From contig JAXMDU010000007.1 of assembly GCA_046348645.1 (NCBI GenBank), forward strand, positions 77,399 to 141,398: a stretch of 64,000 nt of DNA, given 5' to 3'. The stretch is from Alphaproteobacteria bacterium (GTDB taxonomy: Bacteria > Pseudomonadota > Alphaproteobacteria > JAXMDU01). The position numbers and the translations under genes are program-made. The notes beneath the pieces are model-generated. The model ran no database searches. It saw nothing but the letters and a program-made list of their open reading frames with translations, and was not told the origin of the DNA. Positions 56,022-57,749 of the stretch are shown here, in pieces; the stretch's first letter is position 1, and each line of letters starts with the position of its first letter.

Positions 56022-57113
56022 CTACACCATAGCCCTCTGAACCACGAACTCGGGGCTGCCCACGAGAGCTTGTTGGAGTAGCTTGTCGCACCGCATCGCT
56101 ACGTCGGTTTCCTTGGACCCTGGGTTACTCCATTGGGAGATCTTCAGGAGCGTCGCGGCCGATAGTACGACGCACCGAAGTGCAAGGTCAGCCTTGATTT
56201 CATACAGAGCGTTTAATCGTCCACCTGGCTCAACGTCCTTCCTCTTGAATGGAGTGGTGTGGTGTATGGCGTCGCGGTAGCGTTTGCCGGTCTCTATAAA
56301 CGCCTTAAACGGTTCGTTATCGCCACTCTCTGCACCTGCTGAGGCAAATCGCACAACGCGGTCGAGACGATCCTTCAGCGGCGCGCTTTCTTTGGCAGCG
56401 GCATATTTCAGAAACTCCTCGTCGCAAGGCAGATGACCGACTGAGTGCGAATGAACTGCTGTGAAAAATAGCCCACTCAGGAATGCCTCCGCCAAGCTGA
56501 AGGTGGCGCTGATAATGCTCCGGCTCAGAAAGTTTTCTTTTGCCAGCAGTTTGCCAGCGAGATCACGGTCACGCCTTGAGTCGAATTTTGGCCCTGTGAA
56601 TGTGGCCAAGCGCAACCGCGTATCCAGAAGTTCCGGAAGAGAAGTCTCTATATCTCGCAGAAAATGATGCTCTGGGAATTCAAATTGCAGGCCGAACGTC
56701 GATATGTGGACGTGTGCGTAGACAGGGATGCACCGTTTTACTGATTCAGCTAGCGGGAAGTATTTTTTCTCAAATTCATCCATCCGGAGAGAAAGGCCAC
56801 TGCCAACCTTCACTTCATCACACAATCGGGCAAGGTGATCGTAGTCGCAGTGGAGGAAGTTACTGTCTATGAAGTTTTTGGTCTCGGTCGACAGTTCGCG
56901 ATAGCCGCGCCCGATCTGCGACGACACGCTCCGAGCGATACGGCGGTTCGCGATCATTCCAGCCGTGTTGCGCTCCCTCTCGAAGGCTGCCCAATTCGGA
57001 AGGTCGCCCATCATTAGCCGCGAGGCCACCAGAGCTTTCATCTTTATCTGTGCGGCGGCCATCGTTCCCTCGATCAAATCGTGCCTTGGAGGTTTCGGTG
57101 ACGCAGTAGCCAT
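56022..57113 (-). CDS. hypothetical protein with a C-terminal HEPN-like helical domain (putative RNase toxin)
   Basis: 363 aa. The C-terminal ~170 aa reads as four helices, with KRYRDAIHH (Arg/His spacing compatible with Rx4-6H) between helix 3 and helix 4. The N-terminal half is unassigned. An alternative ATG at 57062 has a better RBS (GAGGGA). Confidence 0.5.
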   Translation of the reverse strand: MATASPKPPRHDLIEGTMAAAQIKMKALVASRLMMGDLPNWAAFERERNTAGMIANRRIARSVSSQIGRGYRELSTETKNFIDSNFLHCDYDHLARLCDEVKVGSGLSLRMDEFEKKYFPLAESVKRCIPVYAHVHISTFGLQFEFPEHHFLRDIETSLPELLDTRLRLATFTGPKFDSRRDRDLAGKLLAKENFLSRSIISATFSLAEAFLSGLFFTAVHSHSVGHLPCDEEFLKYAAAKESAPLKDRLDRVVRFASAGAESGDNEPFKAFIETGKRYRDAIHHTTPFKRKDVEPGGRLNALYEIKADLALRCVVLSAATLLKISQWSNPGSKETDVAMRCDKLLQQALVGSPEFVVQRAMV

Positions 57114-57135
57114 TCACACGGTTCGTGCACAAGCC

Positions 57136-57699
57136 CTACGCCTTCCCCGACCGCAGTATCCCCATCTTGCCGGGGTATTGCGCCTTTGGGTTCTGCCGCC
57201 ACCAGAACTCGACCGTAACCGGGATGTGCCACTTCTTGGCAAGGCGCTCCACTTCCTTCCAGCAATCTGACGCCGACTGCCCCTGCACCGAGATTCCGAG
57301 GTCGGGATGGTACTTGAACCCTTCTTCCTCGTACTGCTTCGCCTTGGCCGGAATCGCCAGTTCACGGACCAGCTTATCGTCCTCAAACCCCTTGGCTTTC
57401 ACCTGCGCTATCATCGTCAGCAGGATAGCCGACCAGCGAGGGCTATGCAGTGACTTGCCGTTGATCGAGGCGGCCATCGGCTTGGTGAAAGCAAGCCCTG
57501 GTGCGGCATCGAATTGCATCGCTCCGTCGGTGGTTGAGGTCACCACTTCCTCAGGCTCGCTGTCGCGCTCTATGCCGAGCTGCTCCATCGCCTCTCGTAC
57601 GATGCGGTCAATGGTCTCGCTCGGCGTTTTGGTGCCGAACCAAGTTGCGATGGACTTCAGGTCGGCAAAAGTGGCGTCGTTGATTCTAACTACAGGCAT
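57136..57699 (-). CDS. hypothetical protein with an N-terminal ribbon-helix-helix-like DNA-binding domain
   Basis: 187 aa with a GGAGGA RBS. MPVVRINDATFADLKSIATWFGTKTPSETIDRIVREAMEQLG looks like an RHH / SeqA-N-type fold. An acidic linker follows, then a ~110-aa domain I cannot assign. Confidence 0.5.
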   Translation of the reverse strand: MPVVRINDATFADLKSIATWFGTKTPSETIDRIVREAMEQLGIERDSEPEEVVTSTTDGAMQFDAAPGLAFTKPMAASINGKSLHSPRWSAILLTMIAQVKAKGFEDDKLVRELAIPAKAKQYEEEGFKYHPDLGISVQGQSASDCWKEVERLAKKWHIPVTVEFWWRQNPKAQYPGKMGILRSGKA

Positions 57700-57724
57700 C
57701 GTAATGCTCCTCCATCGGCCCTGA

Positions 57725-57749
57725 CAGAAAATATGTTACATATTTTCTG
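57725..57749. promoter_or_regulatory. perfect 25-bp palindrome (12+1+12) cagaaaatatgt-t-acatattttctg
   Basis: It starts 26 bp upstream of the ATG of the RHH-like gene. This is a candidate operator for autoregulation. Confidence 0.6.

Follow-up and report, generated by a model that had tools for sequence, protein, structure and literature searches.

Genes at the locus and their occurrence elsewhere

The locus studied here is located in a 64,000-nucleotide window (the whole stretch of DNA that was analysed) of an alphaproteobacterial contig, JAXMDU010000007.1, positions 77,399 to 141,398, and comprises two co-oriented genes on the minus strand. The upstream gene, sepA (57136..57699, -), encodes a full-length SepA-family protein (NF047386) of 187 aa. 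The downstream gene, whose longest open reading frame (ORF) spans 56022..57113 (-) and corresponds to 363 aa, encodes a protein with a HEPN-like motif in its C-terminal half. A first-pass annotation, made from the sequence alone, had described these ORFs as lying 22 bp apart in an islet of lower GC content, behind a perfect 12+1+12 palindrome, and had interpreted them as a dedicated two-gene toxin-antitoxin (TA) or abortive-infection (Abi) module. The coordinates and lengths of both ORFs were confirmed, as was the distance of 22 bp when the longest-ORF starts are used. The dip in GC content was also confirmed, with values of 0.50-0.58 over approximately 56000-58200 against 0.62-0.68 in the flanks, and the palindrome was found intact at 57725-57749, 26 bp upstream of the sepA ATG.

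The interpretation as a dedicated module, on the other hand, largely failed when the co-occurrence of the two genes was evaluated. The count was based on 19 genome loci containing the 5' end of the HEPN-like gene plus upstream sequence, and on 68 metagenome sepA loci having downstream sequence. In 3 of the 19 genome loci (L004, L007 and L012), the closest relatives, sepA was found to precede the HEPN-like gene. The HEPN-like gene was present downstream of sepA in one of the 68 loci (L040), while in L033 the contig breaks off after the first codons of that gene. The conclusion on pairing was changed because of these statistics: the pairing is not obligate, and sepA and the HEPN-like gene are regarded as passengers that travel independently. 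No recurrent neighbour of the HEPN-like gene emerged from all-against-all neighbour clustering, and sepA likewise lacks one, its most frequent neighbour being shared by 6 of 87 loci. The SepA proteins of different loci show 66-93% identity, irrespective of the presence of the HEPN-like gene. In the window and its clade the HEPN-like gene stands close behind a small upstream gene with an operator; nonetheless, this operator goes with sepA everywhere. When the PADLOC library was searched, no model matched either of the two window proteins (E up to 1). A module cannot be called from a toxin-like motif, adjacency and a palindrome upstream, even when these are taken together.

The HEPN-like gene was mostly found solo, either among housekeeping genes (as in L116, L118 and L125) or in islets rich in TA genes, with neighbours such as parDE (L017), phd (L016) and a brnT/vapBC/higBA cluster (L120). 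At other loci it directly adjoins tRNA genes. Distant homologues adjoin HpaII restriction-modification genes and an MZB/helicase pair (L126), or Bil and HipA genes (L123). No SepA operator was detected upstream of the solo HEPN-like genes. No copy of the HEPN-like gene was detected in 72,556 plasmids or 50,697 phages, and sepA was found on 6 plasmids and in 2 IMG/VR contigs, with none among the same 50,697 phage records. At other loci sepA adjoins integrases (L001, L112) or lies near GIY-YIG and resolvase genes (L115).

The SepA-family gene and its operator

The first-pass annotation had described the two-gene module as uncharacterised; gene 1, however, belongs to a named family. The protein was identified as a member of NCBIfam NF047386, the 'T4SS effector SepA family' (T4SS, type IV secretion system), with an E-value of 8.9e-76 and a score of 253.7 bits, compared with a cut-off of 110 bits. 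The match spans residues 1-183 of the protein and positions 1-181 of the 182 of the profile. When Pfam, NCBIfam, PHROGs and PADLOC were scanned, the other match obtained was phrog_24708, whose function is not known. More than 760 SepA relatives were retrieved, the best 120 showing 76-92% identity. Homologues with 66-93% identity, numbering in the hundreds, originate from soil, peat and water metagenomes and from metagenome-assembled genomes (MAGs) of free-living alphaproteobacteria.

Proteins of the family have a length of 187-190 aa; their first 45 residues are nearly invariant and the N-terminal region of approximately 60 residues is highly conserved. The long start of sepA is preceded by a ribosome-binding site, GGAGGAG (57707..57713, -), of which GGAG is conserved at the same position in the alignment with related loci. 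By inspection, the full-length N-terminus displays no hydrophobic signal-like stretch. In the AlphaFold2 (AF2) model, residues 1-42 (57574..57699, -), near-invariant in the family, adopt a strand-helix-helix arrangement resembling the ribbon-helix-helix (RHH) fold, with a strand at residues 4-6 and helices at 14-20 and 26-40. The predicted local distance difference test (pLDDT) score is 55-73 in this segment of the model, which is a monomer; RHH domains are obligate dimers. An alpha/beta domain follows, and the fold of the C-terminal domain of approximately 110 residues was not assigned. The RHH fold of the N-terminal segment is a prediction from model topology only and is unproven. Autoregulated RHH repressors constitute the CopG, Arc and ParD class. 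SepA resembles them in the short strand-helix-helix N-terminus of its model and in the tandem palindromes overlapping its own promoter. It differs from them in having no RHH sequence or fold match and in carrying the extra C-terminal domain of about 110 residues.

The palindrome, CAGAAAATATGT-A-ACATATTTTCTG, is perfect over its whole length at 57725-57749, and the chance expectation for such palindromes in the window is 64000 x 4^-12, or about 0.004. Its 13-bp core, ATATGTTACATAT (57731-57743), occurs a single time in the 64 kb even if 2 mismatches are allowed, the expected number being 0.14. The operator core ATATGTWACATAT, searched with one mismatch allowed, was detected at 126 sites in the 445 kb that the 90 sepA loci comprise. 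Every one of them is located at positions -110 to -20 of the sepA start, with none elsewhere in those loci, and no site was detected in 230 kb of non-sepA loci. The palindrome is a SepA-family operator, a cis-element dedicated to gene 1 and exclusively linked to it. This fits the autoregulated operator suggested in the first-pass annotation. Since sepA alone travels with the sites, the binding protein is most economically taken to be SepA itself, which may well recognize the family palindrome.

Two copies of ATATGT(A/T)ACATAT were found in 77 of 84 sepA upstream regions, with a spacing of 34-35 bp in 67 of those 77. In 68 of 78 loci, a TTGnnn hexamer is located 16-17 nt upstream of a TAACAT or TTACAT hexamer (TWACAT) contained in the proximal copy. 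Because of this spacing, the distal site is directly adjacent to the -35 box, and the proximal site shares nucleotides with the -10 box. Comparison of the window with nine related loci, including that of Brucella, revealed that exactly 34 bp are missing, corresponding to one site, the -35 box and the spacer. The 25-bp palindrome is composed of the left flank of the distal site joined to the right flank of the proximal site. Its perfect form is therefore derived, being the fusion of two operator copies via a 34-bp deletion. In this fused operator (57725..57749) the -10-like TAACAT was kept and the -35 box was lost, GCCGCC being present at the -35 position. No sigma-70-like promoter was detected in 55900-58100, from higB through the end of the HEPN-like gene.

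The window protein shows a full-length match to the hidden Markov model of the family and 79% identity to SepA of Brucella abortus (BAB1_1492; NF047386; P0226). Both genes belong to a horizontally acquired tRNA-linked island. At the Brucella locus (L001:7130-8573) sepA is called as 190 aa, carries the same two-site operator and adjoins tRNA-Met and a 164-aa integrase fragment; no HEPN-like gene follows it. Brucella SepA was discovered through a search for tRNA-linked islands, and it has been described in reviews as a protein of 130 aa, without recognised domain and with a predicted signal peptide, which undergoes VirB-dependent secretion through a periplasmic intermediate and whose over-expression is harmful (PMC4602199, PMC12676571). 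This description differs from the 187-190 aa of the family proteins. The 130-aa form would start near the internal Met62 of P0226 and would not include the conserved strand-helix-helix N-terminus.

The promoter architecture of sepA is thus strictly conserved, and the gene encodes an N-terminal domain that the 130-aa Brucella annotation lacks. Together these features would explain the harmful over-expression and the apparently tight control of expression in Brucella. The presence of a near-identical sepA in hundreds of environmental alphaproteobacteria raises the question of the role of SepA within the bacterium.

The HEPN-like protein

About 165 close homologues of the larger protein were retrieved, and every named one is labelled 'hypothetical'. 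An exhaustive profile search among 1.84 billion proteins yielded 182 representatives of the family. Its taxonomically labelled source records are all (alpha)proteobacterial, and the 22 genome loci all derive from MAGs, nearly all of them labelled Alphaproteobacteria. The window protein gave no match in Pfam, NCBIfam, PHROGs or PADLOC. The homologues have a length of 341-348 aa, start at the equivalent of Met18 and cover residues 18-363. The ATG at 57062 is preceded by a GAGGGA Shine-Dalgarno sequence, whereas the ATG at 57113 is not. Met18 at 57062 is the probable true start, resulting in a protein of 346 aa, so that the true gap between sepA and the HEPN-like gene is probably 73 bp and not 22 bp.

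The sequence KRYRDAIHH, in which the first-pass annotation had recognised a HEPN-like Arg/His motif, was confirmed at residues 277-285 of the 363-aa ORF. In an alignment of 47 members (18-48% identity) only F86, G141, E148, E209, R280, D281 and H285 are invariant. The Arg/His pair is therefore conserved among the homologues, R280, D281 and H285 being three of the seven invariant columns. E209, R280, D281 and H285 stay invariant in a domain-only alignment, and the most divergent member, P0384, has kept all four residues, with R, D and H in RRDAVIH. The codons of R280-D-A-I-H-H285, an R-D-x3-H motif, are located at 56259..56276 (-), and that of the invariant acidic residue Glu209 at 56487..56489 (-).

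Two domains were distinguished. The N-terminal domain (residues 18-175; 56589..57062, -) is of mixed helix/strand composition and includes the invariant F86, G141 and E148 and an FxFPE motif. No Pfam, NCBIfam, PHROG or PADLOC entry matched it, and it may have a sensing or autoinhibitory role. The C-terminal domain (residues 176-335; 56109..56588, -) is helical and predicted to be of the HEPN type. The AF2 model of the protein is confident, with a pLDDT of 89.6 and a predicted template modelling score of 0.85. In the C-terminal domain the model displays helices at residues 179-222, 232-243, 246-257, 269-284, 298-305 and 308-329. RDAIHH extends from the end of helix 269-284 into the loop that follows it. 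E209 is placed within the long helix 179-222, preceding the motif helix, and a helical hairpin (232-257) lies between the two. In HEPN domains the Rx4-6H motif is found at a helix end and the start of the following loop, and helix-2 often bears a conserved acidic residue (PMC3710099). The placement of the motif, the upstream Glu and the hairpin insert of the predicted model match this published description.

Searches with family members gave sub-threshold matches to RiboL-PSP-HEPN (5e-4), HEPN_Apea (0.042) and AbiJ_NTD4 (0.044), and, in the PADLOC library, to Cas13a (2.3e-5) and Csx1 (0.003). We take the RiboL-PSP, Apea, AbiJ_NTD4, Cas13a and Csx1 entries to be members of one HEPN clan. It is probable, albeit not proven, that the larger protein belongs to the HEPN superfamily. 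As such, it could be an RNase of the abortive-infection or toxin kind with a role in defence.

AbiJ, HEPN_Apea and HEPN_RiboL-PSP proteins resemble the window family in having R-x4-H at a helix end and an upstream acidic residue (both, for the window protein, as seen in the model), as well as in being stand-alone genes in defence or TA islets, and the weak matches are to exactly these. The window family differs from them in that it stays below the curated cut-offs, is small and possesses N-terminal 160 residues unlike the library entries. HepT-MntA and RnlA-RnlB share with the locus the presence of a predicted HEPN RNase beside a small upstream gene in an addiction-type islet. Their toxins, however, are consistently paired, whereas the window partners are apart in the great majority of loci. 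MntA is a nucleotidyltransferase (PMC7641770) and not an RHH protein. The 346-aa family represents an unannotated candidate for a single-protein HEPN effector, with catalytic triad-like residues, and is small enough for a direct test.

Several of the homologous loci showed further features around the HEPN-like gene. In L005 (5781-7122) the gene (6001-7044) lies exactly between two identical 77-nt copies of tRNA-Arg(CCG), 1,251 bp apart, and looks like a one-gene cassette integrated at the tRNA. In L009 (5639-6083) a complete relB is followed by a yafQ/relE-like ORF that runs out of frame after approximately 15 codons, before the HEPN-like gene, so that the cassette may have displaced a toxin gene. 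A 155-aa protein with weak matches to RAMA, DUF4357 and DUF2924 precedes the HEPN-like gene in L022 (5519-5986), and truncated remnants of it are located at the same place in L008 (5825-5989) and L010. This protein and its remnants constitute a second recurrent upstream neighbour, unrelated to sepA; a kinship of SepA with the RAMA/DUF4357 protein was considered and rejected (hhalign probability 0.2%). In L012 (4647-5965) the HEPN-like gene is split by an insertion of approximately 1.3 kb encoding 401 aa, which by eye resembles an IS256-type transposase.

The islet and its interpretation

The two genes are part of an islet of approximately 2.8 kb (55988..58778), in the order higA, higB, sepA, HEPN-like gene and conserved terminal block. 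The RelE-like toxin gene higB (57986..58282, +; PF05015, E 1.9e-30) is divergent from sepA. It is followed by a gene for a higA-like helix-turn-helix antitoxin at 58291..58599 (+), the start of which is approximate (PF01381 HTH_3, E 3.7e-10 on 58300-58599). The islet is situated past the 3' end of a tRNA-Ser(UGA) gene predicted by ARAGORN (58800..58887, -). The higBA and tRNA neighbours named in the first-pass annotation were therefore recovered. The setting that it had suggested, a tRNA-linked addiction or defence islet, is supported by the tRNA-Ser, by higBA and by collinearity with a related element, as described below.

The window is collinear from 58670 to 55988 with L004 (4431..7117), at 87% identity. 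Homology with L004, L012, L040, L029 and L036 stops at 55987/55988 every time. A conserved terminal block of approximately 48 bp (55988..56036), beyond which the related loci diverge, marks this end and contains one copy of GGCTACGCCCGGC. Since L029 and L036, which have sepA only, share this block, the HEPN-like gene sits in a variable slot. L004, the closest genome locus, contains (2713-4431) an extra 1.7 kb between tRNA-Ser and higA, with a large serine recombinase (Resolvase plus Zn_ribbon_recom). The window does not contain this 1.7 kb, which would be placed at approximately 58666-58670, so that the islet is probably no longer mobile. What is left at tRNA-Ser is the remnant of an integrative element without its recombinase. 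This remnant is bracketed by the 13-bp direct repeat GGCTACGCCCGGC, at 55992-56004 and, beside the tRNA, at 58766-58778. Only the window has a perfect repeat, the relatives having kept no more than an imperfect version at the distal end. It was therefore not retained as a conserved att core and is suggestive only; an att core is a possible, unproven identity for it.

The explanation that we favour, and regard as moderately probable, is that of a decayed tRNA-Ser element with three separate modules: higBA, sepA and a solo, self-contained HEPN-type gene. The region analysed would be the distal half of the recombinase-less remnant, in which the three would act as separate modules of selfish or defence type. 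The N-terminal strand-helix-helix segment of SepA would bind the ATATGTWACATAT palindrome. Two operator copies bracketing the -35 box and overlapping the -10 would then provide autorepression of sepA; in the window, the 34-bp deletion between the copies would have left the single fused 25-bp palindrome and no -35 box. The HEPN-like protein would combine a novel N-terminal domain with a HEPN-type domain at the C-terminus, centred on Glu209, Arg280 and His285. It would be a self-contained and normally autoinhibited RNase that needs no dedicated antitoxin. The side-by-side arrangement with sepA would be lineage-specific, with transcriptional coupling at most.

Several results weigh against this explanation. 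No Pfam family was retrieved for SepA at E up to 1, no RHH chain was found by a PDB sequence search with the N-terminal 48 residues, and Foldseek of the SepA model against the PDB gave no match. The model as a whole, a strand-helix-helix N-terminus followed by an alpha/beta domain, is mediocre, with a pLDDT of 67.7. The published role of Brucella SepA is that of a VirB-dependent secreted effector (PMC4602199, PMC12676571). In the clade of the window, sepA and the HEPN-like gene are tightly linked and co-oriented, which leaves room for a local functional link. For the larger protein, no curated HEPN profile threshold was reached, the best score being 20.4 bits for RiboL-PSP-HEPN against a cut-off of 28.4. 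Whole-chain Foldseek of its model against PDB and BFVD returned nothing with E below 0.38, and PDB profile searches for it were empty; all the alignment profiles used on the PDB (A2, A3 and A6) gave chance-level matches only. The structural check that had been suggested for both models thus yielded no structural neighbour for either. Matches to NTase_sub_bind were discounted as HEPN evidence because they map to N-terminal residues 18-70, outside the motif region. Of the earlier claim of a HEPN-like effector, the conservation of the motif and its HEPN-like placement in the model stood, whereas no Foldseek match and no curated profile came to its support.

It is improbable that the genes constitute a dedicated TA or Abi pair, in which the HEPN-like protein is the toxin and the RHH protein is both its antitoxin and, by way of the palindrome, the repressor of the operon. 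The co-oriented and closely spaced genes do follow the antitoxin-then-toxin order, with an operator upstream and surroundings rich in TA genes, and the same arrangement was observed in L004, L007, L012, L040 and L033. However, sepA is missing at 16 of the 19 HEPN-like genome loci, with no other constant partner, and the HEPN-like gene is missing at 67 of the 68 sepA loci. The range of SepA identity is the same with or without the HEPN-like gene, the operators go with sepA alone and no PADLOC model matches. Co-transcription has also to be considered, as there is no promoter-like site between the genes, whether the gap is 22 or 73 bp. SepA could be a portable transcription factor for downstream cargo, comparable to the regulators that precede many defence systems, and would control the HEPN-like gene here without neutralising its product. 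Such a role is compatible with the two plasmids on which a SepA homologue lies 56 bp before a co-oriented SNF2-related gene, with another co-oriented gene 98 bp after sepA in L030, and with the slot of variable content that separates sepA from the terminal block in elements of this family. It is nevertheless unlikely: the gene after sepA is mostly convergent or far away, no neighbour is shared by more than 6 of 87 loci, and the operator is confined to the sepA promoter, whose -35 box is deleted in the window.

The larger protein might also not be a HEPN nuclease, its Glu, Arg-Asp and His residues serving another activity or the structure of a new helical fold. PDB and BFVD contain no structural neighbour, no profile matched at its curated threshold, the N-terminal half has invariant residues of its own (G141 and E148), and several loci are single-gene insertions among housekeeping genes. 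This possibility is judged rather unlikely in view of how the motif is spelled (R-[D]-x3-H), its position at the end of a helix, the invariant Glu before it and the hairpin insert, all of which fit the published HEPN description, and of the weak matches from two independent libraries, which concentrate in HEPN proteins. Far less credible still is a type IV secretion substrate as in Brucella, accompanied by a downstream co-effector or chaperone. The family name, the 79% identity to Brucella SepA and the reviewed VirB-dependent secretion speak for it. Against it stand the hundreds of 66-93% identical homologues in environmental metagenomes and free-living alphaproteobacterial MAGs, a Brucella locus without the HEPN-like gene, and the full-length N-terminus without a hydrophobic signal-like stretch.

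A broader proposal can be put forward tentatively, and we consider it rather doubtful as a whole: SepA, whose family is known only as a Brucella type IV effector, would be primarily an autoregulated DNA-binding protein of alphaproteobacterial integrative elements and plasmids that carries its own two-site operator along, and the 346-aa protein would found a new single-gene HEPN family. For SepA, this would imply that the 130-aa 'effector with signal peptide' may be a cytoplasmic protein of 190 aa that was annotated without its N-terminal part. The 346-aa protein may bring a novel sensor domain into a defence or toxin family. Its gene appears able to move as a one-gene cassette, judging from the tRNA-Arg copies of L005 and the variable slot of the sepA element. 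The unnamed HEPN-like family is new, as are the implications of the conserved operator and N-terminus for SepA; the family of gene 1 was already named.

Further sepA loci showed other settings. In L114 (2376-5705, 12467-12567) the gene next to sepA encodes a Type ISP restriction-modification enzyme of 1,109 aa and a SEFIR/TIR-domain gene is close by, which is a defence-island setting. The plasmids NZ_CP019939.1 (L109:5001-10561) and NZ_CP149930.1 (L111:5001-9334) carry a SepA homologue with 54-55% identity, and it is on these that the SNF2-related gene follows 56 bp downstream in the same orientation. On NZ_CP019939.1, genes for a DNA methyltransferase and a DEAD/DEAH helicase come after the SNF2-related gene, in what we take to be a DISARM-like order; Drt2 and a recombinase are located immediately upstream. 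In L030 (3419 onward) a 91%-identical sepA is followed by a 305-aa ORF starting with MSTRAHTVPKFYLNGF, which replaces the HEPN-like gene and whose start resembles the DUF4238 signature.

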